From Candidatus Heimdallarchaeota archaeon (lineage in GTDB: Archaea; Asgardarchaeota; Heimdallarchaeia; Hodarchaeales; Hodarchaeaceae), in assembly GCA_020353515.1 (NCBI GenBank), contig CP070695.1, positions 3,073,528 to 3,092,253 of the forward strand: a stretch of 18,726 nt of DNA. Direction: 5' to 3'. The translations under genes were made by a program, and so were the position numbers. Shown one piece after another: positions 1-16,700 of this stretch (its first letter is position 1; each line of letters opens with the position of its first letter). Under the pieces are notes generated by a model that ran no database searches, was not told where the DNA came from, and worked only from the letters and a program-made list of their open reading frames with translations.

Positions 1-86
1 TACACACGAACCTCCGTATGTTTTATTTCTCGTGTGAAAAAAAATCTTCTAAATGGAGGTATGAATGAATCAAATTTAGGATTTAC

Positions 87-545: not shown

Positions 546-546
546 A

Positions 547-822
547 TCACTTCAAAAGGTTCTTCGTAGCTTGAAATTCCTCCTCAGCCTCTTTTGATGA
601 AGCTGGCCCTCCTGATCTAAGTAAACGACGTTTACGAAATTCTTCTAAGAACTTGTCCACCTTCATACCTGCTAGTTCTGCAGATTTTGACATACTAATT
701 TTACCTTGTTGATAAAGTTCAAAAAGAATGAGTAAATGGTTTTGGTGTTCAAGATCCTCTTTAGATAATCCTGATAACTCAAGTAACTGGCGTGAAACCT
801 TAATTGATATTTCTTCAGTCAT
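547..822 (-). CDS. UPF0175-family antitoxin
   Basis: LFELYQQGKISMSKSAELAGM..FLEEFRKR matches the UPF0175 pattern; directly upstream of a DUF3368 PIN gene. ATG at 822 preferred over TTG at 831. Confidence 0.8.
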   Translation of the reverse strand: MTEEISIKVSRQLLELSGLSKEDLEHQNHLLILFELYQQGKISMSKSAELAGMKVDKFLEEFRKRRLLRSGGPASSKEAEEEFQATKNLLK

Positions 823-941
823 TACCCTCAACCTTATAGAAACATGACATAATTTTCATTAATATGATCTATTAAATTAAGTTTCCTATTCCTGATTTGA
901 ATAACTTTTTGTTCCAATAATAATTTTTTTTAGGAATATAT

Positions 942-994
942 CGTTGGCTATGTTACCAAAAATACGTATATTGATACGTATAATGTACTATAAC
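942..994 (+). repeat. Block A copy 1, 53-bp repeat (second copy at 16034-16086)
   Basis: 49/53 identical to 16034-16086; contains ATACGTATA twice at 12-bp spacing (962, 974). Confidence 0.95.
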
Positions 995-1003
995 GTTGGT
1001 TAT
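976..1003 (+). other. Putative 11-6-11 recombination site
   Basis: ACGTATAATGT-ACTATA-ACGTTGGTTAT; forms the junction between block A and block B. Confidence 0.55.
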
Positions 1004-1035
1004 ACTCAAAAATGACTTCAAAAGTGAAGTCATAA
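991..1035 (+). repeat. Block B copy 1, containing perfect inverted repeat ATGACTTCA-AAAG-TGAAGTCAT (1012-1033)
   Basis: 45/45 identical to 2524-2568; near-identical to 4263-4304. Confidence 0.95.
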
Positions 1036-1324
1036 ATTTCAGAAAGTTCCATCAAGTGCATAATTTTTATTAGCAGGGATTTATTTGATGTGTTATCAGA
1101 TTGGTTAGATACTCCCAAAAAGTATCGTGAATCTATTTCAGGGGTGTTTCACAACATGTATTGAGGAAAAAAAAGTAAGAGAGAGGAAGATTATAGTTGA
1201 ACTAGAGGTTTGCGAATAAGAATGATCTTCCTATGTAGGCCACTTCCAAGCATGCCAAATAATCAGGACATAGATGATGCAGATGATAACTCATACTGCA
1301 GGCAGGATGTAAAAAATGTAACCC

Positions 1325-2146
1325 TTATTGGGATTGGTAGCCTTGAGAAGCTTCGTGCAATCCAATGGCAAGAAGATTAAGTACTTTCATAGCTCTGGTA
1401 GGATTTAGTTTAAAATCTCCTACTTGGACAAGAGTCCTCGATTTCATAGGTAAAAGAATTGTTGTAATTCCTAGAGCATCTGATACTTTTACATTCTTCT
1501 TTTTGGCTTCAGATAGAGCTATAAATCCTTTAATTTCCTTATGAAGTTGAGACATACCATTCAAATGATTGCTAAAGAAACTTTGTTGTCTTTCCAATTT
1601 AATTGCTTGTTCCACATAGTTTCGCGTTTCTTGATCATTTCTTAAGGCCTGGAGAATTTGGGCCAGTTTAAACGCTAAAGATTCTTCTCCACTCGATTGG
1701 AGTAATGATTGTTCGTCAATCTCGATTTGATCAATTGCCCGTTGTATAGCAAAAAAGCCTTTCTGCCCCTTGAACAGACCTTTCTTTTCTATATAGATAA
1801 TAGTACTATCGCAAGGATAGGGCAATAGTGTTGTGTAAGTATACTCCTCAAAAACAATAAAACCTGTTCCTAAGGGGATAGGACTGAGAAAACCGATCAA
1901 ATTTTTAAAACTGTGTTCTTTAACGAAAGCATTAAAGAGCAAATAACGCTCCTTAAGTTTTTGAATCTTAGTTTTGCCCGCTAACCTTGATACACCAGTC
2001 CGTTTTTCATCCTCACTGACCGTAGGTATAAAGGCAGATTGGTATTCAAGAAATTGACCTAAATCCTTTTCAATCTGTTTAATATATTTAGAACGAACTT
2101 TACCTAAAGTTTTATCTGTCACTTGAAATTGGTCAAAGAATCTCAA
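1325..2146 (-). CDS. Hypothetical protein (273 aa)
   Basis: Long ORF, TTG start preceded by GGAGGA (complement of 2153-2158); no motif recognised. Confidence 0.75.
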   Translation of the reverse strand: MRFFDQFQVTDKTLGKVRSKYIKQIEKDLGQFLEYQSAFIPTVSEDEKRTGVSRLAGKTKIQKLKERYLLFNAFVKEHSFKNLIGFLSPIPLGTGFIVFEEYTYTTLLPYPCDSTIIYIEKKGLFKGQKGFFAIQRAIDQIEIDEQSLLQSSGEESLAFKLAQILQALRNDQETRNYVEQAIKLERQQSFFSNHLNGMSQLHKEIKGFIALSEAKKKNVKVSDALGITTILLPMKSRTLVQVGDFKLNPTRAMKVLNLLAIGLHEASQGYQSQ

Positions 2147-2274
2147 TAAAATTCCTCCAATTATTAAATCAAGAAAATTTGATTGTTTTATTAGTTCTAC
2201 ATTCGTCTCAAAAATATAACTAAATTATATACGAAATTCACTCCTACAATAAAAAAAATTGTACCCTTTTTTTC

Positions 2275-2442
2275 TCCATCATCAGTAGCAGGCGCCTCCT
2301 CCAATACGAGAATTCAGGACAGATTGGCACTATGGTGATTGCTGCCCTCAACTTGTTCAATTTTCCCTTTGGCACCATTTTTGCCATTGCGGCGCTCTAT
2401 GTCTTGTCTCAATCTGAAGTCGAACAGCTCTATACCCAGTAG
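2275..2442 (+). pseudogene. Block C copy 1: 3' end of a membrane-protein gene (SIISSRRLLQYENSGQIGTMVIAALNLFNFPFGTIFAIAALYVLSQSEVEQLYTQ*)
   Basis: Frame not in the ORF track; differences from copies at 11572 and 12701 are mostly synonymous in this frame; hydrophobic FPFGT helix pair; no 5' part of the gene present. The repeat continues through the 3' UTR to 2525. Confidence 0.75.
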
Positions 2443-2508
2443 TTTCTTGTTCTTGTGTGGAGGGAATTTTTCACCTTTTCTCTTTTTTCTTGAAGAGGTA
2501 ACTTTCCG

Positions 2509-2536
2509 ATTTCCAATGTCGCTTAACGTTGGTTAT
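2509..2536 (+). other. Putative 11-6-11 recombination site
   Basis: ATTTCCAATGT-CGCTTA-ACGTTGGTTAT; arms are 8/11 inverted-complementary; junction between block C and block B. Confidence 0.6.
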
Positions 2537-2568
2537 ACTCAAAAATGACTTCAAAAGTGAAGTCATAA
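2524..2568 (+). repeat. Block B copy 2 (inverted repeat 2545-2566)
   Basis: Identical to 991-1035. Confidence 0.95.
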
Positions 2569-2701
2569 TTTTTGAAAAGTCATATAAATTCTTCTAATCC
2601 TTTTAAATTTGTTTACAAATGCCAACACTATACTAAATAGGTATATCAGAATATTAATAACTATCACTAGTTTTTTGGCTTCTTTTTTTTATTTGGTTAA
2701 T

Positions 2702-2729
2702 TAATAAGCTGTCAGTGAACGTTGGTTAG
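2702..2729 (+). other. Putative 11-6-11 recombination site
   Basis: TAATAAGCTGT-CAGTGA-ACGTTGGTTAG; same TGT-N6-ACGTTGG spacing, intergenic. Confidence 0.45.
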
Positions 2730-2908
2730 TAATTGGGACAATATAATAGTATAGCACCGATTCTTGTACCGATAGACCTCGAAAGGAAATATCTTTAGTT
2801 GGATTTTTCTTATTGTTTTGATTAACCATTGATATTCGTGAAATGATTTGAGCTTGTAAGTACTGAGCTAGAGTATGTTCAAGCACAATAAATTAATTCT
2901 TGCAGAAA

Positions 2909-2965
2909 TGGAAGGATATATATATAACAATTATAGTTACAATAATAGTTTGCATAATAGAGGTT
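2909..2965 (+). promoter_or_regulatory. Candidate archaeal promoter/operator and RBS of the padR operon
   Basis: Purine run followed by ATATATATATAA (TATA-like), TAAC-N7-GTTA inverted repeat (2925-2939), GAGGT at 2960-2964 before TTG 2971. Confidence 0.3.
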
Positions 2966-2970
2966 GTCAA

Positions 2971-3324
2971 TTGAATCCTATTGAGAAATGGCAGGCAGCT
3001 TATCGCAAAGGATTTGCAAAGCCAATTATCCTAAGTATTCTTTATAATGAGGTAGAAAGCTATCCATATCGAATAACTAAGCAAATATCCGCAAATACTC
3101 ATGGACAATTAACAATTGCGCCATCCAATATTTATCCAATTCTTAAAGAGATGGTTCATGAGGATTTGATATATGAAAAAGGTGTTGATGAAAGAAGGAT
3201 TATTTACAGTATTACTAAGCGAGGAAGAGCATTTTTTGAAGATCTTAGTAACCATCTGTGCGAATTTTTGTCTGCAATGCAGAAAAATTTTGACAATCCC
3301 AAAGAGCTGAAGAAGGATGAATAA
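2971..3324 (+). CDS. PadR-family transcriptional regulator
   Basis: RKG..PIILSIL...SYPYRI...SNIYPILKEM...LI...RRIIYSITKRGR winged-helix PadR pattern; TTG 2971 with RBS preferred over the ORF-track start 2875. Confidence 0.9.
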   Translation: MNPIEKWQAAYRKGFAKPIILSILYNEVESYPYRITKQISANTHGQLTIAPSNIYPILKEMVHEDLIYEKGVDERRIIYSITKRGRAFFEDLSNHLCEFLSAMQKNFDNPKELKKDE

Positions 3325-3958
3325 AGAAATGGAATTAATAGATGATTATATTCAAGAAGTTAATATCTGGTTACCATATCCAATGAATTTGAAATCTAAG
3401 ATTCTAGAAAATCTCAAATCTGATATTCTAGAAACTATTAAAGATACAGGTGAAAAAAATCCAGTATTAGCCTTTGGTGATCCCTATCATGTTGCTAAAA
3501 GTATTAGTAAAGGTCAAGACTGGGGAACAATTCGTGCAGATTATGGAACGCGTTTTTGGGCTTATTTATTTGACCAAGTTATTATTTTTCTAGGAATGCT
3601 GATTGGTATTTATCTATATATCAGCATCTCCCTGAGATCAGGGTTCAACTCATTATCCTTATTTTTTACTGCATTTTTTGTGCTGCTTCCATATACCCTT
3701 TTCTGGATATATGGTTATTTCGTTATCTTAGAAAAAATATTTGCTGCAACACCTGGAAAACGATTATTAGGTTTATCAGTTTGTGATGAATCAGGGGTTC
3801 GTATAACGTGGCTTCAAGCAATAATAAGAAATATTACGAAATTTGAAACTACATTATTGTTGTTAGATACTATAATTGCACATTATAAAAAAACAAATTA
3901 CCAGCGATTAATGGATACTGTGGCCAAAACCATTGTGGTTAGAAGAATTAATTTTTAG
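3317..3958 (+). CDS. RDD-family membrane protein with N-terminal HAAS-like (DUF1700-type) helical domain
   Basis: N-term DDYIQEV...ILENLKSDILE...FGDPYHVAK; C-term RFWAYLFD, TPGKRLLGLSV, AIIRN, QRLMDTVAKTIVV RDD motifs; overlaps the padR stop. Confidence 0.85.
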   Translation: MNKEMELIDDYIQEVNIWLPYPMNLKSKILENLKSDILETIKDTGEKNPVLAFGDPYHVAKSISKGQDWGTIRADYGTRFWAYLFDQVIIFLGMLIGIYLYISISLRSGFNSLSLFFTAFFVLLPYTLFWIYGYFVILEKIFAATPGKRLLGLSVCDESGVRITWLQAIIRNITKFETTLLLLDTIIAHYKKTNYQRLMDTVAKTIVVRRINF

Positions 3959-4244
3959 ATCATGATAATTGCTTAAATCGGTTAACACACTATCCGAAGG
4001 ATTTTATCTCGAATAAACGGTTGAATAAGCAACAGCTGGAATTTAGGTGCTTAATTATAGCTTACTCCTGTGATGATCTAGCACTGATTTTTGGATAGAG
4101 TAATCTATATAGAACGTTCATTTATCATTGATATACAATATTCAAATGTCGTCAAGCAAAAATTATAATTGTTAAAGCCAGCTTTTGAGAAATTTTGACT
4201 TGTATATATCAGAATTTGTCGTTTAAGTTGGTTATATTCAAATG

Positions 4245-4272
4245 TCATAAAATGTCATTGATCGTTGGTTAT
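4245..4272 (+). other. Putative 11-6-11 recombination site, preceded by a degenerate copy at 4209-4235
   Basis: TCATAAAATGT-CATTGA-TCGTTGGTTAT; upstream TCAGAATTTGT-CGTTTA-A(-)GTTGGTTAT. Confidence 0.5.
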
Positions 4273-4304
4273 ATTCAAAAATGACTTCAAAAGTGAGGTC
4301 ATAA
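4263..4304 (+). repeat. Block B copy 3 (inverted repeat 4281-4302, one mismatch)
   Basis: CGTTGGTTATATTCAAAAATGACTTCAAAAGTGAGGTCATAA; two substitutions versus copies 1 and 2; similarity to copy 2 continues to about 4325. Confidence 0.93.
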
Positions 4305-4415
4305 TTTCTGAAAAATCCTATAAATACACAATTTCATAAAAATTCTAAAATCATATTGGTACTAAATCATTCTTTGTCAGTAATTGATCTTTCTGAAAAT
4401 ATATAGGTGAAATAA

Positions 4416-4682
4416 TTGACGCTATTTGAAGGATTTCTCCACATTGGTTTCATTATTACTGGATTAAGCTTCAGTGTATTTCTAGGGAGTTTGGTGAAAC
4501 ATTTTATTGATCTTAGGAATTTAATCTATAGATTATTTGACGAGTACAAGCAAGATGAGTTGTCAGAAAACTTAGCTAAACTTGATAAGAGTCTTATGAG
4601 TAGTGCACGCAGAATCTTTTTCTCTGGCTTTTTCATGGTTATTGGATTATTCATATCTTATGTCGGAGTGCTAAATAGTTAG
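4416..4682 (+). CDS. Small hypothetical membrane protein (2 predicted TM helices)
   Basis: AGGTGA RBS before TTG; hydrophobic segments at both termini. Confidence 0.7.
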   Translation: MTLFEGFLHIGFIITGLSFSVFLGSLVKHFIDLRNLIYRLFDEYKQDELSENLAKLDKSLMSSARRIFFSGFFMVIGLFISYVGVLNS

Positions 4683-4703
4683 GCCCCTAATTTGGACTTT
4701 AAT

Positions 4704-6164
4704 TCAAAATAATAAGAGGAATGGTGCGGTCAAGATAACCATTATCATTAAAATAAAGTATCTAGTTAGCTTGGAGTTTATTAGTCTTGTTTTCCCGAGA
4801 ATTGTGCTCAATCCTGACATAAGGATTATAACCAATAAGCTAAGCGGTCCTTTTATTACTAACAAAGGGATGCTATAAAAACTGGTTCCCAACAGTCCAA
4901 GGAGAAATTTACTTTTTCGCATATCCCATTTATTGACTGGAAACCGTTGCATAGGATTCTTAATTTCAAGTTGCATAATTTGCATACAGAAGTCGGCTAT
5001 TCGATAAATAACTATGAGTAAAATGATATGGATCCATGTGTTCTCTTTTGGTATAACGAATAAAATAATAAGGGTAATTCCAGTAACAATAATCGGAGCT
5101 TGGTAAAGATGTTTCCGTAACATCTGAATACGTTTAATAGCGAGCCAATCTTTTAATAAATAAGCTCGCCAAGGTGATTTGCCACTGATAATAGTTGTAC
5201 CCTTGATATTTTCGTTAATTAGCTCAGGAGGTTCAATGGTTTTCCCACCGAAAAGATCTTCTATTTGTGTTGCTTGAAATGATAATATAGGCATGATCTC
5301 TGTCATATCTACCATTGGGTTGTATTTCACTGCAACAAGACTAGCGATACATGTGAGTATGATTGATTCCAAAAATAAGATGAATAAGGCAAACCAACTA
5401 ATTAAAGGAACACCAGATCGAAAGAAAAAACCTGTTGCTGATACTGCTGTATTAATCAATGGAATAATAATGTATTTGGAAAGAGTATTGAAAGGGATGA
5501 AAAAATGCTGTTGTAACATTAGAAGTGCTATTATGGGGATTCCAAGAATAATTATACCAATTAGCGGATTAATGTTTACCCATATTAAGAACCAACTTCC
5601 CTTACGCCTGAACCTTCGAAGAGTAAAGAAAGCTAATTGTGCCATGCTTTCACAAAGATGATAAGTAAGAAAACATATAATCAGTACACTTGCTATTCTC
5701 CACCAAGGTAAATGAAGTACAAACATTAAAGGACCGAATAACGCTACAATCATAGGTCCCAAAACGAAGGATACTTTGAGAGACTCAGTTATTCGCGTTG
5801 AAACATACATTACAGATGGTTCAACTGGGATACGTTGAAAAAAGTGAATATCTTGTCGCCCACTAATAAAAGGGTTCCGAAGTCCAGTCGCTCCAGCAGT
5901 AATTGAATAAGACAACATTGTGGCAAAAAAGACTAAAAATCCGAATGATAATAAGTCTCTGTAAGGAATTGATGGTTGAGTGTTTTGTTGTGAGAAGATA
6001 CCTAAGAAAAGAATAACTAAAAGAACTCCAAAAATTAAAGCATAAAACAACAATAATAATATACCAAGTGTTAAAATAATGGGTGAGTGGCGTTTAAGTC
6101 CAATTTTTATTCGCAAACGACTCAAATCATATACTTTTTTAAGCAGATTCCTTATCGTTTCCAA
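4704..6164 (-). CDS. Multi-pass membrane protein, probable ABC exporter permease
   Basis: About 10-12 hydrophobic segments; start directly abuts the stop of an ABC ATPase gene. Confidence 0.75.
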   Translation of the reverse strand: METIRNLLKKVYDLSRLRIKIGLKRHSPIILTLGILLLLFYALIFGVLLVILFLGIFSQQNTQPSIPYRDLLSFGFLVFFATMLSYSITAGATGLRNPFISGRQDIHFFQRIPVEPSVMYVSTRITESLKVSFVLGPMIVALFGPLMFVLHLPWWRIASVLIICFLTYHLCESMAQLAFFTLRRFRRKGSWFLIWVNINPLIGIIILGIPIIALLMLQQHFFIPFNTLSKYIIIPLINTAVSATGFFFRSGVPLISWFALFILFLESIILTCIASLVAVKYNPMVDMTEIMPILSFQATQIEDLFGGKTIEPPELINENIKGTTIISGKSPWRAYLLKDWLAIKRIQMLRKHLYQAPIIVTGITLIILFVIPKENTWIHIILLIVIYRIADFCMQIMQLEIKNPMQRFPVNKWDMRKSKFLLGLLGTSFYSIPLLVIKGPLSLLVIILMSGLSTILGKTRLINSKLTRYFILMIMVILTAPFLLLF

Positions 6165-6974
6165 TTATTCTACTTCCTCCCCACCTTCAACTACAGCGAG
6201 GTAAACATCCTCAAGACTTGCATCCTCAGTTAGTCTATAACGCACCTCAGAGAGCGAACCTTGAGCTACTACTTGACAATCATGGTTCAATATAATAACA
6301 TCTGTACAAATACGTTCTATATCACTAAGTAAGTGACTACTGATAAGAATTGTTCCCTGAGAAGTAATAGCGAGTTCAGACACTCCTTCATCTATAAATT
6401 GTGATAGTAGATTCAGACAATAATGTCTTCCATCAGGATCAAGTCCATTGAGAGGTTCATCCAGAAGAAGAAGTTCAGGTCCTTGGATAAAGGCAGCAGC
6501 GACAGATAAACGTTGTCTATTTCCTTCAGATAAGGTGGTTATCATCTGCTCAGCCCAGCGTTCTAATTTAAATGCACTTAATAATGCGTCTACTCGAAAA
6601 GCTTGAATATCCTTTGGTATTCGAATGGCACAGGCAATCATCTGGAGATATTCTTTGGGAGATAAATGTTCGTAAAAGACATTCTCTTCTGGAACGTAAC
6701 CAATACGTTTCCTATAGGTTTGTAGACTCTGGTGTTTTACAAAGCCGTCTATACATGTTTCCTCTCCAAAAAGAGAGATTTGGCCATAAGTCACATCAGT
6801 AAAACCAAGTAAGCACTTGAACAGAGTGGTCTTTCCTGATCCATTGGGCCCTACCAATCCTGTACAAGAACCTTTGTTGATTGTTAATGATAGCTTATCG
6901 AATACAGGAAACGTACCATAGTTTTTTACCAATTCTTTCACATTAACAACAGCTTCTTGTTCTTTCATAAACAA
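6165..6974 (-). CDS. ABC transporter ATP-binding protein (ABC-2/multidrug type)
   Basis: Walker A GPNGSGKTT, IGYVPE loop, signature LSEGNRQR, Walker B LLLLDEP, D-loop GLDP, H-loop ISSH. Confidence 0.95.
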   Translation of the reverse strand: MFMKEQEAVVNVKELVKNYGTFPVFDKLSLTINKGSCTGLVGPNGSGKTTLFKCLLGFTDVTYGQISLFGEETCIDGFVKHQSLQTYRKRIGYVPEENVFYEHLSPKEYLQMIACAIRIPKDIQAFRVDALLSAFKLERWAEQMITTLSEGNRQRLSVAAAFIQGPELLLLDEPLNGLDPDGRHYCLNLLSQFIDEGVSELAITSQGTILISSHLLSDIERICTDVIILNHDCQVVAQGSLSEVRYRLTEDASLEDVYLAVVEGGEEVE

Positions 6975-7379
6975 CCAGCTTTAATTTAATAAAATGAGTA
7001 TATTAAAGAGCATAATTGAATTATATAATAGCTACCTAAAATTGGTTTTGACATTATTGGATTTGTCTTTATAGAATTGACCAAGTTTAGTCTCGCTTTG
7101 TGTCAAGAGAAAGATATAACTTAATTAATTCATTAAGCAAAATGTACCTGAATCGATATTCATATCATCCCAGAGCAATTTTATATAAAAAATTTGTATA
7201 TAGAGTTGGGTAGGTTAAAGGGTCTATCTTACTAGCTTTTCCTACTGACACATCAATATAATTTTCAAAGCGATCCTGGTGCGTTTCGGCAATGATTTTT
7301 GAGATTAAAAATTCTTTAATGAATTTTGAATTTATTTTCAATAAAAGTTAAAGAACAGTTCTGAAGATACGTTGGATTA

Positions 7380-7607
7380 ATGACTAATTACATAGGTATT
7401 TATATGGGTATGTGGTTAGGTTTTCAGTTTGGTCTGCGAAATGGCGAGATAGTGCATCTACGGATCATCCACATTCACAGAATATGTTTAAAGAAAAAAG
7501 AAGGAACATCTTTAATCAATGGTGGCTCTCCAAAAAAGGATTCAACTTGGTTGATCACTCCTCCTAGTTTTTCCTCAAGTGCTTATTTGTTCATGAAATT
7601 TAAATAA
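7380..7607 (+). pseudogene. Tyrosine recombinase/integrase fragment
   Basis: WLGFQFGLRNGEIVHLRI matches box I (GLRxxE..L); downstream SPKKDS resembles the catalytic-Lys hairpin; no HxxR/Tyr box II and no N-terminal domain; in-frame stop upstream at 7362-7364. Confidence 0.6.
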
Positions 7608-7635
7608 GAATAAAAAAATTCATCTCGTCAGGACA

Positions 7636-9270: not shown

Positions 9271-9412
9271 TGACACAGAGTTCGTTTGAAAAGTCTTGAA
9301 GAAACTATTTCCTGTTATGTACAGGTTTGTCCTCCTAGTAGAATATTCCGTGTATAGCCACTTTATAACGGGTGTCGGGCGAATTCTAAGTAGTTATTCT
9401 CTATTTCATTAA

Positions 9413-11434
9413 TTATTGATTAATCATGTCAGCTGTCGGGCGCACCCACGCTTCCTGAATTTTTTTTGCATCTGCAATATAGCTTGCGATACGTGCCCGT
9501 TCTACCCGTTCCTGAATCGACGCCTTGCGTTGGATTAATTCGTCCCACTTATCTAGTTCAGCTTGGACAGTTTCCTGCTCCAATTTGACTTTGGAGAGTA
9601 GACTAATGAGTTTTTTCTCCTCTGCAATTCTTTTGGCAGTAATAAGAAGATCATTCGCCTCCTCAATCTTACCTTTAACTAGCATTAATTTTGTTTGTAA
9701 AATAAGCGACATTACTGTGAGCAATGGAGATTTTTGACTTTGAGCGATGTTATAAAGATCCCCTGAGAGTCTTATTACTTCTGCTAACAACTCCTCGGGT
9801 GTCTCTGAAATTTGCAATTCCAAGATAAGTAATTCACAAAGGTTCAACATTGCCAAGATAGTAATGCTATGGTCAATAATTTCGTCTTCAATAATCGCTT
9901 GGAAAATTTGTTGAGCTTGGAGTTTCTTTACACCTCGTTTACTCATTTTTAAGACTATAGCCTCTGAAAAACGAGTTATTAGCTTAACAAATTTGCTTTC
10001 AGTTTCTTGTTGAACATCCTGTGCCTGTTTAAGGTATTCTTCTGCTATTTTAACAGCATTTAGATCTTGTGCTACAAGTATCACATGAAACAGGAAATAA
10101 GAGAACCAAAATGACACTACACCCCTTCCACCTATTACTGCTTTCTTAAGTGACGCCATTCCTTCCTCTAAAAACTTCAAAGATTGATCTAATTTTCCAA
10201 GAAGCTTATAGATTACACCGAGTTGCCCGTGACAAATTGAAATTCCAATTTTTACATTTTGTTTAGTAAAAATATCTAGGCTTTGACTGATAGTCTCTAA
10301 AGCCAGGTCTAGTTCTCCCTGGAGAGTATAGACGACTGATTGTCTCTGAAAAGACCAAGCAATGCCTGTATCATTATTATATTGTTTACATAATTCTAAG
10401 CATTCATTATAGTAATCGAAAGCAAGATTTAAGTCTCCTGTTCCTAAATAATGGACGTCCCCAATGCTCATTAAGCACATTGGTATACGAAATAGATTAC
10501 CTATCTCCTTATAGATGTCTAAACTTTGTTGATAATAATTTAAGGCAGTATCAAACTCACATTTTAGAGAATGAGATAATCCAATATTAGCAAAAATTAG
10601 TGCAACTGAATTTTCATCATCAAGTTGCTTTTTTATTTCTAAGGCTTTTTCAAAATAATTTAATGCAAGATCATACATTTCCTTGTACATGTACGTAATA
10701 GCAATATTATTGTTTAACCCAGCTATCCATTCCCTATTATCTACTTCTTGATAGAGGGCAAGACTTTTTTCAAAATAAGAGAGAGCTTTATCAAGGTTCG
10801 AATCGCTTTTATAATAAGTACCTAATCTATTGAGAGAATAAGCAATGGCTGTCTTATTACCAAGTTTTTCACTAATGGTTAAGCTTCTCTTAAAAAAATC
10901 AAAAGCAAGTTTGAGTTTTCCGGTAACTTCTGAATGAACCCAACCAATAGCTATCAATGTTTCCACAATATCATGCTGGTCATCGAGTGCTTGTCTAATA
11001 ACTAAACTTTTATCTAATAATATCAAAGATTGTTGTGTTTCACCTGTATAAAGATGCAGATATCCTTGTAAATACGCTAGTGAACCTTGACATTCCCTCT
11101 TATCAGTTTGGGGTACCTGTTTAATATCAAGAAGCAATTGTTCACCCTTTTGAATGACCATTGTTAACTCTACTAAATTTCGAAGAGATAGATAGCAATA
11201 ACCTAAGCTTATGAGTGCTTTTAGTTCTTGAAGCTTCATCCCCTTCGTCTGACTCTCCTTAATCGTTTGTTCTGCTACCTCTAGTGCCTTTTTCGCCTCT
11301 CCCATTCGTTCTAAGATGCGACTTTTTAGGATCATTCCCTCTAACTTATCTTCCTCTCCTAATTCCTCTATTATCTCAAGTGTTTGATTGTATTTCCCGT
11401 GTTGCATCAATTCTTTAATTTTTAGGATCCCCAT
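9413..11434 (-). CDS. Tetratricopeptide-repeat protein (about 673 aa), paralog
   Basis: TPR repeats (SLNRLGTYY..ALSYFEKSLALYQE); ATG 11434 (MGILKIKELM) aligns with the paralogs' N-termini, so preferred over TTG 11545. Confidence 0.92.
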   Translation of the reverse strand: MGILKIKELMQHGKYNQTLEIIEELGEEDKLEGMILKSRILERMGEAKKALEVAEQTIKESQTKGMKLQELKALISLGYCYLSLRNLVELTMVIQKGEQLLLDIKQVPQTDKRECQGSLAYLQGYLHLYTGETQQSLILLDKSLVIRQALDDQHDIVETLIAIGWVHSEVTGKLKLAFDFFKRSLTISEKLGNKTAIAYSLNRLGTYYKSDSNLDKALSYFEKSLALYQEVDNREWIAGLNNNIAITYMYKEMYDLALNYFEKALEIKKQLDDENSVALIFANIGLSHSLKCEFDTALNYYQQSLDIYKEIGNLFRIPMCLMSIGDVHYLGTGDLNLAFDYYNECLELCKQYNNDTGIAWSFQRQSVVYTLQGELDLALETISQSLDIFTKQNVKIGISICHGQLGVIYKLLGKLDQSLKFLEEGMASLKKAVIGGRGVVSFWFSYFLFHVILVAQDLNAVKIAEEYLKQAQDVQQETESKFVKLITRFSEAIVLKMSKRGVKKLQAQQIFQAIIEDEIIDHSITILAMLNLCELLILELQISETPEELLAEVIRLSGDLYNIAQSQKSPLLTVMSLILQTKLMLVKGKIEEANDLLITAKRIAEEKKLISLLSKVKLEQETVQAELDKWDELIQRKASIQERVERARIASYIADAKKIQEAWVRPTADMINQ

Positions 11435-11571
11435 CGTTGAAATTTCATCCCTTAAACGCTTTTTTTTTAAAAAAAGTTCATTCTGTAACCTCAAGATATT
11501 TTCAAGTATGAATAACTTTCTATGGAACAATATAATTTTTCTCAAGATGTGATATGTGATGTCGTTTTGTC

Positions 11572-11739
11572 TCCATCATCAGTGGCAAACGCCTCCTCCA
11601 ATATGAGAATTCTGGTCGGATCGGCACTATGGTGATTGCTGCTCTCAATCTGTTCAATTTTCCCTTTGGCACCATTTTTGCCATTGCGGCGCTCTATGTC
11701 TTGTCTCAATCTGAAGTCGAACAGCTCTATACGCAATAG
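11572..11739 (+). pseudogene. Block C copy 2: 3' end of the same membrane-protein gene (SIISGKRLLQYENSGRIGTMVIAALNLFNFPFGTIFAIAALYVLSQSEVEQLYTQ*)
   Basis: Versus copy 1: 9 synonymous and 3 non-synonymous codon differences; in-frame TGA at 11557-11559 upstream; 3' similarity ends at half-site ACTTCCCTTGT-CATTTA (11842-11858). Confidence 0.78.
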
Positions 11740-11887
11740 AGTCTTTTCATGGGTGGAGGGAGTTTTTCCCCTTTTCTCATTTTTCTTGTGGGTTTTTCAG
11801 TCTGTTTGGGTAGTCTTTCTTGAAGGAAATATTACCTTCTTACTTCCCTTGTCATTTAGATCAGAGGAGTTTTAGGCTTTTCACCAT

Positions 11888-12379
11888 TTATGAATTCTCT
11901 TTAACTTCATTTATTTTCGCTTCTAACTCGTTTGTATTTAGTATTTCAAATTCTGTGTTAATTTCTCTGACTCTATTCAACCATTTCGTTTTTAACAGCT
12001 TTTTTAGTGTGATATCTTCGCTTACAAGAACATTTGCATGGATTATGGCGCTTGCTAGTACTAAACAATCAATATAATCTGAATGATCATACCTAAAGTC
12101 AAATGCTAATCTCTGTACTTCTCCATTCCAAGGATCTATTGATGAGATGTTTCTCCAACTGGTTAATGCATTTATTCCATCAATTACATCATTCACTGTC
12201 AATTTTCCTGCTTTTATCATTTTTGCCCCCTTTGTAGATAGTTCAAATAATGTTATGGAAGAGAATTGCAATTCAAAAGGTTTTTTTTGGTGGATAAGTG
12301 AGATGATTTCTGGAGAAGATTTTTCCACCTTTACTTTTATCAGAGGAAAAAAGTATGAAGAATCAAATAAGATCTTCAC
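11888..12379 (-). CDS. vapC: PIN-domain toxin VapC
   Basis: ILFDSS, SSITLFEL, DYIDCLVLASA, LVSED PIN motifs; 4-bp overlap with upstream antitoxin. Confidence 0.9.
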   Translation of the reverse strand: MKILFDSSYFFPLIKVKVEKSSPEIISLIHQKKPFELQFSSITLFELSTKGAKMIKAGKLTVNDVIDGINALTSWRNISSIDPWNGEVQRLAFDFRYDHSDYIDCLVLASAIIHANVLVSEDITLKKLLKTKWLNRVREINTEFEILNTNELEAKINEVKENS

Positions 12380-12624
12380 CTTTCTAGCTCCTTCGAGAGT
12401 GTTAATCGATCCTTTTTGAACTCCTTCCAGCTAATGTTGATCTTTGAGGGTTGTGACAATAAGATAATTGGATCTGGAATTTTTTCAATGATTAAGCGAC
12501 CATGTATTACCGAATACTTTATTTTTTGGTTCTTTTTAAGTCCAATCGCTTCTCTTATCTTTTTTGAGGGGAATAATTCCCCTTTTGACCCGACTTTTCC
12601 TTCATCTGTTGTCATTCTTTCCAC
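12376..12624 (-). CDS. vapB: AbrB/MazE/SpoVT-family antitoxin (VapB)
   Basis: KVGSKGELFPSKKIREAIGLKKNQKI...GRLIIEKI swapped-hairpin pattern; upstream of vapC (alternative ATG at 12615). Confidence 0.88.
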   Translation of the reverse strand: MERMTTDEGKVGSKGELFPSKKIREAIGLKKNQKIKYSVIHGRLIIEKIPDPIILLSQPSKINISWKEFKKDRLTLSKELER

Positions 12625-12700
12625 TCGACTATCTAATATTTTTTCTGGTATATATAGTTTTTTCTGGTGATTGAGCTACATCTATCTAATTTTAAGTTGT

Positions 12701-12820
12701 ATTGGCATTTTGGTGAGTGCTGCCCTCAATCTGCTCAATTTTCCCTTTGGTACCATTTTTGCCATCGCGGCGCTCTATGTCTTGTCTCAATCAGAGGTTG
12801 AACAACTCTATACCAAGTAG
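12701..12820 (+). pseudogene. Block C copy 3: shorter 3' end of the same gene (IGILVSAALNLLNFPFGTIFAIAALYVLSQSEVEQLYTK*)
   Basis: Versus copy 2: 9 synonymous and 5 non-synonymous codon differences; the repeat continues through the 3' UTR to 12904. Confidence 0.75.
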
Positions 12821-12887
12821 TTTCTTTTTCATGTGCGGAGGGAGTTGTGTCCCCTTTTCTCTTTTTTTTGGTGGATGTTTCTTTCTA

Positions 12888-12915
12888 CTATCCAATGTCG
12901 TTAAACGTTGGGTAT
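12888..12915 (+). other. Putative 11-6-11 recombination site
   Basis: CTATCCAATGT-CGTTAA-ACGTTGGGTAT; arms are 8/11 inverted-complementary; block C ends here and is followed by non-B sequence. Confidence 0.6.
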
Positions 12916-13102
12916 CACTAGTTTTTTATATAAATAACACTTTTTCACTTTATTATTGTCAAAAGTCCTCAGGATTGATTAATAACATTATGATTTTATA
13001 TCATTTCAAGCTTTAAACCTGCGTTCATCTTAAAACTTTAAAATATGATTTCAAACTTATTTCTAATAAGAAACAAACCTATTGTTGATCTCCTCAAACG
13101 AT

Positions 13103-13147
13103 TTTTTTAATTCCAATCCTGGAGCAGAGAGGATTGAAATTAAAGAA
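13103..13147. promoter_or_regulatory. Long inverted repeat upstream of the protease gene
   Basis: TTTAATTCCAATCCT-N9-AGGATTGAAATTAAA, 14/15 paired (13106-13144). Confidence 0.45.
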
Positions 13148-13181
13148 TGGATTTCGGCAATATTAAGGTGGTTATGAAGTT

Positions 13182-15323
13182 TTGGAGAAGAAGAAAGCAA
13201 TTTTATCAAGTGTTATTGTGACACTATTGTGTTCTATTTTAATTTCTTTTAACATGATTTCTGCTAATTCGAAATATGCTTTGACGGAAGTGAGAAGTGC
13301 TCATTTTCCATCAACAACTCAAAATTTGGGCTTTGACCTTGATAGGAAATCTAATGTTTTATCAAATGAGCAATTACTCTTTAAAAGTTCCAATTCTACA
13401 AAATCTTGGACTTATATGTTGTATCTTGATGCAGATAATGATATAGAAAGAGATGCAATTCAAGATCTAGAGGAGATTGAACGTGGTGTAGGGAGTAGTG
13501 CTGATATCAATGTCGTAATCTTATTCGATAGAATCCCTGGTTACGATGATAGCCATGGAAATTGGAGTGGCAGCCGTTATTATTTGGCTTCTGAGGATCT
13601 TTCAATGTTTACGATTGATTCAGTTTTATTAGAAGACTTAGGAGAAGTAGATATGGGTGACCCAAACACGCTAAATAATTTCTTAAATTTTTGTTTTGAG
13701 AATTATCCCGCTGAGAAGTATTGTCTAGACTTATGGGATCACGGCTGGGGGGCCCATGGAATGTGTGCCGATGAAACGGAAGGCTCTGGGTTAACACTGG
13801 AAAATATCCAATATGCCCTTTTGAACTCCACTGTTGCCTATGGAACTGAAATTGATGTTATTTCTATGGATGCTTGCGACATGAATACCTTAGAGGTCGC
13901 TTGGGAGTTGCGAAATCTTTGTGAGTATTTTGTAGCTACAGAAGATGTAACAAATGGCTATGAATATGAACCCATTATTCGAGGATTACTGGAAAGCCCC
14001 GAAATAACTTCCTTTGAACTTAGCAAATTAATGGTTGACGTATATGCAAATGAATTCAATTCAGTGTCCTTTACTTGCCTATCTGTTATAAACGAATCTC
14101 GTATAGACGATGTTATACCCTATATCAACAATTTCGCCGAACAACTAACTTATGTTTTAACTGAATTGGGGTATAAACCATTGTTTTCGTGGGTAAGAAA
14201 AAATACTCCCGATTTCTTTGGAAAGGACTTTGTAGATTTAATTAATTTTGCTGAAAAAATGAATTCCTGTTCCAATTATGAGCCCCTCCAAATAGCAGCA
14301 AATGAACTCGTAATATTTCTTAAACAATTAGTAGTTTATAATTGGCAACATAGTTCTTACATTGGAGCTGCAAACGGAATAAGCATCTTTTTACCTTACA
14401 CTAATAAGAATTTTACATATTACATTCTGGATAATTATGTGAATCAGAGAGGTCCTTTTGAAGGAATGGATTGGCAAAGGGATTCACAGTGGGATGAGTT
14501 TTTAGAGCTATACTTGAGTCAGAGTTATTATTTGGCTCAACCAAGTCCTTATCGACTTTTTTTAGGAGAGAAAACAGAGGAGTTTACTCTTAATCAAGAT
14601 GAAGGAAAACTATTCCGAATAGGAGGTTGTCAAAAATCAACCTATGAATTTACTTGCAATATATTATCTGGAGATGTTGATATGCAAGTGTTAAGCGTAG
14701 ATGGTCATCTTGGTGGGAGTTACCTTATTAATCCAGAAGACGGTTCAACTGAGAATTGTCGTTTTTATCTCCCATATGGTTCTTACTATCTTTTTCTCCG
14801 TGGAAAAATTCCTGTATCTAGTTATACAGTTGAAGTAAATCAATATCTCCCTCAAAACCTCTCTTGTAACACCCCATATCGTGCTTCTGGAGGTACAAGA
14901 CAAGGAGATAGTACAGGACATTTCATTCAAGACTTACATCATTACTTTCAAGTTGAAATAGGAAAAGGAAATTATACAATAATTCTCAGTAATTCAGAAA
15001 CAGCAAATTACCAATTAACACTCTATGATGACTCTTGGATTCAACTCCTTCTTTGTAAACCAGCAGGTTTTGGACAAGCTTTTACTTTGAATTACACTTC
15101 CACTAACAGTGAAACTGTCTTATATTTTGAAGTAGTTGGACTTGAAGGTGCAGGAAGTTTTACAATAGAAATAAATGATGGAATGTCTACTCTGTCATCA
15201 GAAGAATCATCTAGACTACCAAACACATCTACTTCCGAATCTTCTTGTGGATTTTTGTATTCTTTTGTTATTTTAATTGGAATAATTTTAACTTTCCAGA
15301 AAAAGCATAGAAAATACTTGTAA
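13182..15323 (+). CDS. Clostripain-related cysteine peptidase (family C11), secreted and C-terminally anchored
   Basis: Signal peptide; WTYMLYLDADNDIE, DMGDP, LWDHG (catalytic His) and MDACDM (catalytic Cys); beta-rich C-terminal domains, Ser/Thr linker, GF plus TM helix plus basic tail. Confidence 0.92.
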   Translation: MEKKKAILSSVIVTLLCSILISFNMISANSKYALTEVRSAHFPSTTQNLGFDLDRKSNVLSNEQLLFKSSNSTKSWTYMLYLDADNDIERDAIQDLEEIERGVGSSADINVVILFDRIPGYDDSHGNWSGSRYYLASEDLSMFTIDSVLLEDLGEVDMGDPNTLNNFLNFCFENYPAEKYCLDLWDHGWGAHGMCADETEGSGLTLENIQYALLNSTVAYGTEIDVISMDACDMNTLEVAWELRNLCEYFVATEDVTNGYEYEPIIRGLLESPEITSFELSKLMVDVYANEFNSVSFTCLSVINESRIDDVIPYINNFAEQLTYVLTELGYKPLFSWVRKNTPDFFGKDFVDLINFAEKMNSCSNYEPLQIAANELVIFLKQLVVYNWQHSSYIGAANGISIFLPYTNKNFTYYILDNYVNQRGPFEGMDWQRDSQWDEFLELYLSQSYYLAQPSPYRLFLGEKTEEFTLNQDEGKLFRIGGCQKSTYEFTCNILSGDVDMQVLSVDGHLGGSYLINPEDGSTENCRFYLPYGSYYLFLRGKIPVSSYTVEVNQYLPQNLSCNTPYRASGGTRQGDSTGHFIQDLHHYFQVEIGKGNYTIILSNSETANYQLTLYDDSWIQLLLCKPAGFGQAFTLNYTSTNSETVLYFEVVGLEGAGSFTIEINDGMSTLSSEESSRLPNTSTSESSCGFLYSFVILIGIILTFQKKHRKYL

Positions 15324-15332
15324 AAAGGTGTA

Positions 15333-15352
15333 GGAGGATTATTTTATCCTCC
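15333..15352. terminator. Hairpin between convergent genes
   Basis: GGAGGAT-TATTTT-ATCCTCC perfect 7-bp stem just after the protease stop; T-run at 15370-15376. Confidence 0.45.
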
Positions 15353-15429
15353 ATTGACCTGCATAGTTGTTTTTTTCGAGTAATCCTTGGTTATGTAGTT
15401 TCTTGAACGTATACCTTAAAAATTTCTAT

Positions 15430-15966
15430 TCAATTGAGGGTAGATTGGACAGATTTGCTAATAACGGTTTTTGCTGTATCTGCAAGCTTAAGTACTGGTT
15501 TTTTGTACTTATTAAGAAGTAAGCTGCTTGTCACAACTGATACAGAACTTAATGCCATAGCTAGACCAGCTAGTTCGGGTGGAAGAGTAATTTTAAGAAT
15601 AGGATATAATAACCCTGCAGCAATTGGTATTCCAGCGGTATTATACCCTAAAGCCCAGAACATGTTCAATCGAATTCGTCTCATGGTTTTTTTGCTTAGA
15701 TCAATCGCTGTAACAACATCACAGGGGTCATCTTTCATGAGAATAATATCTCCTGCTTCAATTGCAACGTCTGTTCCTGAACCTATCGCTATACCTACAT
15801 CGGATTGAGCTAAAGCTGGGGCATCATTTACACCATCTCCAACCATCGCAACTGTTAATCCTTTTGATTGAAGCTCTTTTACTTTCTCTGATTTTTCTCC
15901 TGGCAATACATCTGCAAAAATATCCTTGATTCCTAGTTGTTTCCCTATTGCATTTGCAGTTCTTGT
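15430..15966 (-). pseudogene. copA: 5'-truncated Cu(I)-translocating P1B-type ATPase (C-terminal about 180 aa only)
   Basis: [38 protein letters not shown] and MALSS copper-ATPase motifs; similarity stops just before the expected TGDN; no DKTGT or CPC upstream. Confidence 0.9.
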
Positions 15967-16033
15967 AATAAATTGGCACCAAGTGAGGGAATGATAAGAC
16001 TCACATTTGTTTATATAAAAATTGTGCAGATTC

Positions 16034-16086
16034 CGTTGGATATATTACCAAAAATACGTATATTAATACGTATAATGTACTTTAAC
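16034..16086 (+). repeat. Block A copy 2; ends in degenerate site ACGTATAATGT-ACTTTA-ACTCAGGATAA (16068-16095)
   Basis: 49/53 identical to 942-994, with unrelated flanks on both sides. Confidence 0.95.
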
Positions 16087-16358
16087 TCAGGATAAGTTAA
16101 TGAATATACATAAAATGGCATGTAACTTTAGATTACCACCAAATTTAAAATAAATGAATATTTTACAAAAAACCTACATTATGTTAATTGCCAGTTTTTC
16201 AGCTTCCGAAAAGCTCAAAGCAGTAGGTCAATCCTTGTTCAGTAGCACAGGTACGGAAGTGACAATCAGAAGTCCAACACTTATCTGTCATCCATCTACA
16301 CTTTTTACAAGATAGTTCAACAATTCATTCAGAACTACTTCCATTTAAGTCAAATTAA

Positions 16359-16700
16359 ATAATAGAACTATTTAGAGACGGACACATTTGGGATGAAATC
16401 GCTCCCTTAGCAAAAGACATTATCATCTACAAACCCTCTTATGGAGCTTTCTATGACACTCCATTGGAAACGATACTTCGGAATCTGGGAAAAGATACCA
16501 TCACCATTTGCAAGACATTAACGAATTATTGTTGTGGCATGAGAGCCCCCCAAGGGTATGAAAGAGGATTCAAGGTCGTGTTGGGGAGCGATTTGACGTC
16601 AACGAATGACCCAAAAATGCATGAAGAGGAACTAAAAGTCCTAAGGGCTGGATTAGCTTGTGTACTCTCTTTAGATGACATTCCCAAGGAAATAGCATAG
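16359..16700 (+). pseudogene. 5'-truncated isochorismatase-family cysteine hydrolase
   Basis: Frame extends upstream of the ORF-track start: IWDEIAP..IIIYKPSYGAFYDTPLETILRNLGKDT..TLTNYCC..GYERGFKVV..SD; stop at 16356-16358 and no N-terminal IDMQ-type motif. Confidence 0.82.

Follow-up and report, generated by a model that had tools for sequence, protein, structure and literature searches.

A cassette array in a Hodarchaeales genome, probably built by recombination at co-oriented 28-bp sites of the Xer/dif type

The window analysed here (the whole stretch of 18,726 nucleotides) is one entire draft-MAG contig of the Hodarchaeales (Asgard archaea), with N spacers at both ends, and it holds an array of modules. 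Conservative site-specific recombination at a 28-bp site of the Xer/dif type probably built this array and reshuffles it, with an accessory integrase as the most likely catalyst. The sites, the similarity breaks and the swapped neighbours described below support the proposal of a first-pass annotation that this is an archaeal module array rearranged at a recurring, co-oriented site of the tyrosine-recombinase type. The data were short-read MAGs and Logan contigs throughout, the latter being uninformative on circles, strand and abundance and interpreted for those parts of the window that the runs covered. Neither a circular intermediate nor excision within a population was seen, which counts against our reading. 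The comparison set consisted of 22 genomes of the genus (21 besides G000, the source genome) and 61 genomes from outside the genus.

The site is ATGTCGTATAA-CGTTGG-TTATACGACAT, in which CGTTGG is an invariant and asymmetric centre, and it has the geometry of dif and pdif sites (28 bp, with 11-bp arms and a 6-bp centre). The 11-6-11 plan had been recognised in the first-pass annotation and holds, though in another register: (N)AATGT and ACGTTGGNTAT had been taken as arms around a variable N6 spacer, and this "spacer" belongs to the left arm. The inverted repeats ATGTC (left) and GACAT (right) each lie 6 nt from CGTTGG, and sites picked by one arm revealed the other arm, while background CGTTGG gave no such signal; CGTTGG is therefore the overlap and the former spacer is part of an arm. 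The CCA needed for the palindrome of the earlier register was found in 2 of 32 non-identical sites, both in block C of the window, and the claim of arms inverted at 8 of 11 positions held for the two block-C-linked copies only.

Within the window, CGTTGGNTA occurred seven times on the + strand and never on the - strand, every copy being intergenic, as had been claimed for the motif. The genome rate of 0.0103 per kb per strand gives an expectation of 0.19 copies per window strand (Poisson probability of about 1e-9), and the window is the densest CGTTGGNTA cluster of the genome. The motif copies reported earlier, all on the + strand, were recovered as 7 matches, where shuffled sequence led us to expect 0.72 and not one of 200 shuffles gave as many. 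The suggested genome scan for clustering and strand bias of the 4.94-Mb assembly found three copies of the full motif, none of them outside the window, and the reading as a genome-wide regulator site was rejected because the full motif is restricted to the window. Searches of the 22 genus genomes gave 66 matches for the left-arm pattern with the centre, against 5 for a control pattern, and 55 against 2 for the centre with the right-arm pattern. The site family is confined to the genus, the left-arm pattern with the centre being present in 18 of the 21 other genus genomes versus 3 of the 61 genomes outside it. Other centres with the same arms were not enriched in G000 at the 18-nt spacing. Fully palindromic sites exist, for example in G008:C53 (arms 9/11 and 11/11). 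Two observations count against our reading: the window sites have good left arms and right arms that match only in the inner TTAT(AC), and in some mobile cassettes, the TA cassette among them, the arms at both ends are poor.

Table 1. Sites, cassettes and genes along the window
Feature	Position	Centre	Strand	Remarks
Cassette 0	1..941		+	F-type right arm cut by contig start; TA pair
PIN-like toxin	87-545		-	Cassette 0; Pfam
UPF0175 antitoxin	547-831		-	Cassette 0; Pfam
Site S1	931..958	942-947	+	Left arm from TA cassette, right arm from unit A1
Unit A1	942..993		+	52-bp miniature cassette: right arm, ATACGTAT-ATTG-ATACGTAT palindrome, left arm
Site S2	983..1010	994-999	+	Arms 9/11 and 7/11
Cassette 2	1000..2526		+	B1 start unit (1000-1056), 273-aa ORF, C1 tail
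273-aa ORF	1325-2146		-	Cassette 2; no known family
C1	2268-2507			Membrane-protein gene tail in cassette 2
Site S3	2516..2543	2527-2532	+	Left break point of the 99.4% module in G011
Cassette 3	2533..2719		+	B2 start unit and AT-rich spacer; no ORF
Site S4	2709..2736	2720-2725	+	G011 copy has the site too
Cassette 4	2726..4262		+	Two genes below
PadR regulator	2875-3324			Cassette 4; Pfam
RDD membrane protein	3317-3958			Cassette 4; Pfam
Degenerate site	4217-4243			In cassette 4; centre with 1-nt deletion (C gone)
Site S5	4252..4279	4263-4268	+	Right break of the G011 module, directly after CGTTGGT
Cassette 5	4269..7369		+	B3 start unit and three ORFs
88-aa ORF	4416-4682			Cassette 5
486-aa ORF	4704-6164		-	Cassette 5
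ABC ATPase	6165-6974		-	Cassette 5; Pfam
Site S6	7359..7386	7370-7375	+	Absent from the first-pass list
Cassette 6	7376..12905		+	TPR proteins, C2, PIN toxin pair, C3
TPR protein	7636-9270		+	Cassette 6
TPR protein	9413-11545		-	Cassette 6
C2	11565-11803			Tail in cassette 6
PIN toxin and partner	11888-12624		-	Cassette 6
C3	12646-12886			Tail in cassette 6
Site S7	12895..12922	12906-12911	+	
Cassette 7	12912..16033		+	Two genes below
Clostripain-family C11 peptidase (Pfam)	13182-15323			Cassette 7
P-type ATPase/HAD gene fragment (Pfam)	15430-15906		-	Cassette 7
Site S8	16023..16050	16034-16039	+	Similarity to G003:C95 starts exactly at 16034
Unit A2 and altered site	16034..16102		+	Site 16075-16102 has both arms, centre CTCAGG (16086-16091)

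The cassettes range from 0.05 to about 5.5 kb and carry from 0 to 4 or more genes, and the window sites are distributed 7 vs 0 by strand while gene orientation is mixed (Table 1). The degenerate copies listed in the first-pass annotation proved to be sites at S1, S8, 4217-4243 and 16075-16102, whereas the one at 11842-11858 amounts to no more than the relic of a left arm. The start of the window falls inside a site, its first bases being a right arm without only CGTTGGTAT, and Logan contigs showed CGTTGG plus 2-3 nt immediately before window base 1. Unit A1 is 85-96% conserved in at least 10 genus genomes, and tails C1-C3 are 84-90% identical, each of them placed before a site. Cassette 6 is probably composite, and its PIN pair is a separate cassette between two sites in G003:C95. 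PADLOC returned generic ATPase and TPR matches only for the cassette genes, and Rfam and tRNA scans of the window gave nothing relevant.

The repeats and the changing flanks from which it had been proposed that blocks A, B and C switch neighbours at the motif were confirmed. The 1,744-bp PadR-RDD module (window 2526-4269) was 99.4% identical to G011:C7:224884-226627, while the other window matches to G011 reached 74-92% identity only. Both flanks of this module are unrelated in G011, with the breaks at CGTTGG(T), which agrees with the expectation that breakpoints between relatives would map to the site. The TA cassette has an 87% identical copy, 950 bp between two CGTTGG sites in G010:C11, and its similarity to G010 stops at the centre, at position 947. 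A 27-kb stretch of this 632-kb contig contains at least 10 sites, all in one orientation (10 vs 0 by strand among true sites), and TA cassettes are duplicated within its array. Copies were also found of cassette 3 (93% identical, in G019:C271, ending at 2728), of cassette 5 (85-92% identical, in five other genomes) and of the unit A2 junction (in G003, L040). Other sediment metagenomes (Logan) join the cassettes differently at the centre: from 991 to 12904 at S2, with the common sequence AACGTTGG, from 4260 to 940 and from 4269 to 1, both of which map to S5, and from 7375 to 1, which maps to S6. Several module boundaries lie off-site (e.g. 7022-7030 and 11886/12671) and the B unit of G011:C68 is without the centre, and both facts weigh against our reading. 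The gene fragments and the repeated gene tails show that illegitimate or homologous events had a part in shaping the locus too.

No integrase gene is located in the window, and the source genome has two PF00589 genes only. One is XerA proper (G000 2222613-2223494), with 283 bits against a cut-off of 220 for the NCBIfam equivalog. The other lies on another contig (L001:593-1465) and encodes a protein of 290 aa (PF00589, 86.6 bits) that scored 99.8 bits with the XerA model, below the cut-off of 220, and is 27% identical to the XerA of the same genome in the catalytic domain. Its closest solved structure is P. abyssi XerA (4a8e, E 1.7e-19, end-to-end alignment), and alignment to 4a8e showed that the catalytic residues R..HxxR..H..Y are conserved (R of GLRxSE, HxLR, LGH, Y). 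The scores with the IntI models were 69.5 bits for TIGR02249 (cut-off 265) and 37 bits for NF011946 (cut-off 435), and homologues behaved alike. Judged by these scores, the accessory integrase is a divergent Xer-like protein, distinct from integron integrases and from the host XerA alike.

This integrase adjoins A-type sites. At six loci (G021, two in G011, G008 and two independent metagenome contigs), a CGTTGG site lies 20-100 bp upstream of an operon of a small gene and the integrase, divergent from the operon in some and co-oriented in others, and the right arm of S6, ATTAATGACTA, is identical to that of the site upstream of the RHH-integrase operon of G011:C70. The small upstream gene is NikA/RHH-like in one integrase homologue. 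Counted against our reading are the G000 integrase, upstream of which only a TGTTGG variant occurs, and the integrase homologue L069, whose adjacent site has a different centre.

In the mechanism that we propose, a tyrosine recombinase would bind the arms, pair two sites, and cut and exchange strands at the borders of the overlap. With an overlap that is asymmetric and identical everywhere, any two sites might recombine, but in parallel alignment only. Two sites in cis would release the intervening DNA as a circle carrying one site, which could then enter any other site, and the outcome would be co-oriented sites with the left arm from the left cassette and the right arm from the right cassette. 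We infer that the catalyst is most likely the genus-specific divergent Xer-like integrase with the product of the small upstream gene, encoded on another contig, and this integrase would act in trans on the integrase-less cassettes. Such exchange may continue in the present day.

The host XerA could instead be the catalyst of an otherwise unchanged mechanism, as in IMEX and Acinetobacter dif modules, with the accessory integrase serving its own element only, and we regard this as unlikely. XerA is present, the sites have the dif geometry, and their inner arms, ATAA-N6-TTAT, are as in dif sites, including that of E. coli. A related palindrome family of the genus, TGTCGTCAAA-N6-TTTGACGACA, has outer arm bases identical to those of the CGTTGG sites, and its member with the centre CAAGAC occurs once in each of five genomes, which is what one would expect of a chromosomal dif. 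The CAAGAC palindrome at G000:3452204, outside the window, is a candidate chromosomal dif; however, it is unlike the CGTTGG sites in its centre and inner arms, and the CGTTGG sites that immediately precede the accessory integrase operon at the six loci also argue against XerA. The accessory integrase is patchily distributed and several site-rich genomes show no close homologue, but this point in favour of XerA is weakened by the incompleteness of the MAGs and the shortness of the integrase contigs.

It is more doubtful still, and in our opinion improbable, that the locus is a fossil pile of independent integrative elements, each of which once brought an integrase of its own and entered an attB behind a gene for a small membrane protein, and which have since decayed, with no cassette shuffling today. 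The placement of tails C1-C3 before sites is as expected if every attP carried a tail copy, in G008:C37 a site whose left arm is perfect comes after the full-length membrane-protein gene, G008:C56 contains a 13-kb module that opens with a site, a small gene and an integrase, and gene fragments are present in the window. However, modules of 0.2-1.7 kb, in which an integrase would not fit, are mobile and have precise ends, and one is 99.4% identical between species; the duplication of TA cassettes in one array and the variation of cassette order among samples also speak against a fossil pile.

Units A and B carry a palindrome followed on the - strand by T5, which is terminator-like, and the TTATA 3' of the centre might pass for a TATA box. 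It is nevertheless very improbable that the motif serves regulation, as an operator, promoter or terminator, or is a MITE-like repeat end, and that it travels with mobile genes without being a crossover site, for motif orientation is constant while that of the genes is mixed, the distance to genes is not fixed, similarity between genomes breaks inside the 6-bp centre, and variable target duplications are absent. No hairpin is conserved, because other species have a direct repeat in place of the B palindrome. Position and orientation ruled out the terminator and promoter readings, and A and B units as structured RNA or ssDNA hairpins (IS200/IS605 ends, REP, attC) were rejected on the B palindrome, which is not kept, and on the lack of attC-type long-range pairing. 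An assembly chimera at short repeats is hardly credible, since many junctions share merely 7-12 bp, contigs of 217, 227 and 632 kb in other assemblies show the same architecture and one Logan contig spans S1, even though this is a short-read MAG contig, the contigs of the assembly often end at these repeats and Logan unitigs break there.

Hodarchaeales are among the closest archaeal relatives of eukaryotes, and the genomes of Asgard archaea are large and contain many acquired genes, but how such genes are gained is poorly known. To our knowledge, the classical integron is the sole cassette system reported for Asgard archaea, and our literature search found, among the papers searchable, none that describes a CGTTGG-site cassette system. 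On balance, we lean towards a gene-capture platform of Hodarchaeales that is independent of integrons and made from Xer/dif parts, namely a dedicated Xer-like integrase with a small partner protein, 28-bp double-stranded sites and an invariant overlap as address; several addresses (CGTTGG in this array, and CCAGCC among others in the rest of the lineage) would act as parallel, separate cassette pools. If true, this second, lineage-specific cassette system would explain both the local mosaicism and exchange between species, such as that of the 99.4% identical module. It would also provide a defined recombinase/site pair, testable in vitro, that might serve as a genetic tool in these organisms, and would show that tyrosine recombinases gave rise to gene capture of the integron kind more than once.

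Among known systems, tandem genomic islands include cis-mobilisable members without integrase at the 3' end of a gene. The block C gene tails that recur through the array, and the full gene followed by a site in a relative (G008:C37), resemble them, but most cassettes here are without a gene tail, and the cores are short and dif-like rather than long att repeats. Aloposons integrate at tRNA genes and carry giant genes (PMC8813620) and are hence unrelated, and nothing of this kind is described in the paper on Atabeyarchaeia mobile elements (PMC11529989). IMEX tandem arrays at dif, e.g. CTX/TLC/RS1 at dif1 of Vibrio cholerae, use the host Xer (reviewed in PMC5357621). They likewise consist of integrase-less elements with a dif-like site, inserted in tandem at one site and flanked by co-oriented sites, whereas the sites studied here are unlike the candidate dif, are spread over many arrays in a genome and show linkage to an accessory integrase. 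Archaeal XerA/dif has been described (PMC2958812; structure 4a8e) and shares the 11-6-11 plan, and P. abyssi XerA is the nearest solved structure to the accessory integrase, but the latter falls below the XerA cut-off, is 27% identical to the XerA of the same genome and is patchy in distribution.

The plasmid dif (pdif) modules of Acinetobacter are gene modules bounded by 28-bp 11-6-11 dif-like sites, which alternate in orientation around each module and on which host XerC/XerD are thought to act, on plasmids (PMC6449649, PMC13141974). Modules bounded in this way, in varied contexts and often of the toxin-antitoxin type, are common to both systems. Every site of an array lies here on one strand, so that, as first proposed, this is not a typical pdif array; the sites are all direct, the centre is invariant, the contigs are long and chromosomal, and the site shows linkage to a dedicated integrase.

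Integrons, as well as attC clusters without an integrase (CALINs), have been reported in Asgard MAGs (PMC9668308). The array resembles them in its small cassettes of accessory genes (toxin-antitoxin, regulators, acetyltransferases) between co-oriented sites, in the tyrosine recombinase gene found beside a site in some loci and in the reordering of cassettes in other genomes. The earlier view that it is not an integron was upheld by the absence of IntI and of attC R''/R' and by the mixed gene orientation; when attC pairing of R'' (RYYYAAC) with R' (GTTRRRY), inverted repeats that form a hairpin at a spacing of 40-130 nt, was sought at the 8 window sites, the best R'' upstream matched at 4-5/7, random positions having a mode of 5/7. 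The array has double-stranded 11-6-11 sites of 28 bp, whereas attC is a folded single strand of 55-140 nt, and the recombinase is not IntI and is without the IntI-specific additional domain. Integron cassettes mostly hold one promoterless ORF in one orientation, whereas the genes of this array face both ways in cassettes of up to several kb.

The first-pass annotation reported a motif that lies always on the + strand, and this was borne out by our counts, which gave seven matches where 0.72 were expected, a number reached in 0 of 200 shuffles. The exact motif was present in three copies in the genome, all of them within the window. The sequence CGTTGGNTA occurred 102 times genome-wide (0.0103 per kb per strand), a rate that predicts 0.19 copies per strand in the window, where seven were found on the + strand and none on the - strand.

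The same annotation placed a variable six-base spacer between the arms of an 11-6-11 site. The arrays of relatives include sites with the layout ATGTC-six bases-CGTTGG-six bases-GACAT, and in one of these the two arms agree with the consensus at 9/11 and 11/11 positions. Searches of 22 genomes of the genus gave 66 hits for the left-arm pattern TGTC-N6-CGTTGGNTA, compared with 5 for its reversed control. The right-arm pattern CGTTGGTWA-N4-ACAT gave 55 hits, compared with 2. A cross-test of the arms on 175 non-identical CGTTGG occurrences from fetched loci showed that those picked by the right arm had a visible ATGTC on the left and that those picked by the left arm had a visible TTAT on the right, while the other 135 carried no arm signal. 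These three tests support an 11-6-11 site with CGTTGG at its centre. The CCA that would complete the palindrome in the original register was present in just 2 of 32 sites, both of which are block C in the window. Together with the arm tests, this indicates an overlap region formed by the invariant CGTTGG. In the corrected register, the supposed variable spacer makes up the left arm's inner half. The kind of system first proposed was upheld, while its register had to be abandoned and its account of the enzyme was incomplete.

The sites of the window, in the CGTTGG register, are listed in the table with the other features. The site centred at 7370 is new, and the first bases of the contig are a right arm lacking only CGTTGGTAT. 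Left arms of the window sites were good, and right arms matched in the inner TTAT(AC) only. A dif-like 11-6-11 match inside the C11 peptidase gene agreed at 17 of 22 arm positions, and its score, reached at only 11 genome positions, may be due to chance.

Features of the window and of the loci compared with it (positions are those of the window unless a genome or locus is named)
Feature	Position	Remark
Site centres	942, 994, 2527, 2720, 4263, 7370, 12906, 16034	CGTTGG register
Site with 1-nt deletion	4217-4243	
Site with intact arms	16075-16102	centre CTCAGG
dif-like match in C11 peptidase gene	14096-14123	centre ACGATG
B units	994-1056, 2527-2589, 4263-4325	
PIN/UPF0175 toxin-antitoxin pair		
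PadR-RDD pair		
ABC ATPase and 486-aa partner		
TPR proteins		three
Second PIN pair	11888-12624	
Clostripain-type peptidase		
Gene fragments		two
P-type ATPase/HAD fragment	15430-15906 (-)	C-terminal part
Isochorismatase fragment	16369-16698 (+)	
Short dispersed repeat	1227-1342	
Metagenome joint	991 to 12904	A1, then clostripain cassette; AACGTTGG common to both
Metagenome joint	4260 to 940	PadR-RDD cassette, then A1
Metagenome joint	4269 to 1	PadR-RDD cassette, then toxin-antitoxin cassette, as in G011
Metagenome joint		block-C tail, then A1
Host XerA gene	source genome, 2222613-2223494	
Accessory integrase gene	L001 (locus of the source genome), 593-1465	290 aa
Palindrome, centre CAAGAC	G000:C1:3452204-3452229; G002:C94; G013:C30; G003:C157; G017:C174	
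Similar arms, centre CCAGCC	G000:C1:903714-903741; G018:C82:264-289	
Tandem duplication	L067 (G009:C89), 2349-6181	period 2,991 bp
Pair of dif-like sites	L068 (ENA metagenome scaffold), 9525-9578	15 bp apart

The window spans a single contig from end to end. It comes from a draft metagenome-assembled genome with a size of 4.94 Mb and a G+C content of 35.8%, whose 113 contigs are linked by N spacers and which the database names of homologous proteins assign to Hodarchaeales (Asgard archaea). No recombinase, tRNA or Rfam match was found in the window. When the whole window was searched against the genus, its modules were found singly, on different contigs. The stretch 2526-4269, which holds a B unit, an empty cassette and the PadR-RDD pair, was 99.4% identical to positions 224884-226627 of contig 7 of genome G011, the remaining matches of that genome to the window being 74-92% identical, and the flanks were unrelated immediately to the left of ACGTTGG and to the right of CGTTGGT. 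The alignment shows a module, lying between two sites, that was recently transferred between species. The toxin-antitoxin cassette (1-947) matched contig 11 of genome G010 at 87% identity up to the last G of the centre. There it occupies 950 bp between two sites of an array in which another cassette carries a paralogous copy. This array has at least 10 co-oriented sites across 27 kb of a 632-kb contig, and its cassettes measure 0.8-2.3 kb, their genes pointing both ways. Similarity to G003 started exactly at 16034 and that to contig 31 of G011 exactly at 4263, while that to G019 stopped at 2728; the second PIN pair is a separate cassette between two sites in G003. Other orders joined at the centre were found in contigs from public sediment metagenomes (three studies), which represent mixed populations and show presence, not frequency, with short sides at some joints. 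We infer catalysis, circular intermediates and present-day activity.

Two gene fragments inside the array have relatives elsewhere in the source genome, that of the P-type ATPase/HAD protein being 68% identical to positions 4712496-4712905 and that of the isochorismatase 80% identical to 2264330-2264659. The 3' end of a 273-aa ORF contains a 50-70-nt repeat with 94-97% identity to three other places in the source genome (235492-235543, 3351532-3351581 and 232763-232832), of which two lie at contig ends. In locus L067, a two-cassette unit is duplicated in exact tandem, each copy being bounded by CGTTGG sites.

Blocks A, B and C proved to be real repeats with differing neighbours, as first described. 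The genome has further copies outside the window, and several of these are located at contig ends, which shows that the blocks are multi-copy and break the assembly. Block C consists of the last 39-57 codons of a membrane-protein gene of about 190 aa and about 85 bp up to a site. Contig 37 of genome G008 has the full gene, and behind it come a site whose left arm is perfect and, after that, cassettes. The C tails may be copies brought in by attP sites or remnants left by insertions behind this gene. The A and B units (52-60 bp) have a right arm at their start and, where complete, a left arm at their end; they are either cassettes in miniature or the conserved heads of cassettes. Between species, unit A is conserved at 85-96%. 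Two copies of it enclose 15.1 kb of the window, and in G008 two copies likewise enclose 19 kb in which the integrase lies. The palindromic form of B is not conserved: comparison of the window units with copies in the fetched loci L046, L048 and L030 showed an inverted repeat of TGACTTCA around AAAG in this genome and G021, and a direct repeat of AAAATGACTTC in G011 and G019. The B unit resembles two half-sites for a protein more closely than it does a hairpin, and it is possible, as a guess, that these repeats bind an accessory protein.

Of the 21 other genomes in the genus, 18 had the left-arm pattern, compared with 3 of 61 outside the genus but within the class, a number at the chance level. 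A second, related family of 26-28-bp palindromes, TGTCGTCAAA-N6-TTTGACGACA, has the same outer arm bases as the CGTTGG sites and many different centres (47 sites in the genus, compared with 2 for a control pattern). Its copy with the centre CAAGAC is single in five genomes and is thus a candidate chromosomal dif for XerA. Similar arms around CCAGCC were seen in two genomes.

Two PF00589 genes are present in the genome. The first passes the XerA model with 283 bits (cut-off 220), while the accessory integrase scores 99.8 bits on it. For the integron-integrase model, the accessory integrase scores 69.5 bits at a cut-off of 265. The two proteins are 27% identical over the catalytic domain, and the closest solved structure to the accessory integrase is P. 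abyssi XerA, with the catalytic residues visible in the alignment. The accessory gene follows a 135-aa gene, whose G008 homologue is weakly NikA/RHH-like, and adjoins A-type sites bracketing a NosD-like gene. The family to which it belongs comprises about 44 proteins, every one from a Hodarchaeota MAG or a metagenome and most on short contigs, and is patchy across the genus, with some fragmentary copies. In G021, contigs 27 and 70 of G011, contig 56 of G008 and two independent metagenome contigs, the small-gene/integrase operon has a CGTTGG site 20-100 bp upstream; the counterpart in the source genome is TGTTGG, and one further contig has a different centre. In the clade of the source-genome enzyme, the site is directed away from the operon, as attI is from intI in integrons. 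Site and operon share one orientation in G011 and G008, and the G008 pair stands at the start of a 13-kb module that extends to the next site. Because of this linkage of CGTTGG sites to the operon, the accessory integrase is preferred over XerA as the recombinase. The host XerA is a less favoured but still credible candidate for CGTTGG sites, since the related palindrome family shares their outer arm bases and has one member resembling a chromosomal dif. Of the two dif-like sites upstream of the operon in L068, one has the centre GTTGCG and the other arm family, and the second has CGTTGG and a perfect 11/11 arm.

Among known systems, pdif modules as defined do not fit, all sites here being direct and chromosomal. 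Integrons were rejected since IntI is absent, gene orientation is mixed and attC-type R''/R' pairing is lacking, the best pairing at window sites being 4-5 of 7, the same as at random positions. A regulator site, a terminator and misassembly were each rejected as explanations of the motif or the mosaic. Published accounts cover integrons in archaea (PMC9668308), aloposons (PMC8813620), mobile elements of Atabeyarchaeia (PMC11529989), archaeal Xer/dif (PMC2958812) and dif modules (PMC6449649, PMC13141974); an incomplete literature search, which does not prove novelty, found no description, for Asgard archaea, of cassette arrays with co-oriented dif-like sites and a dedicated Xer-like integrase. 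The system of the window is best placed among the site-specific gene-cassette systems.
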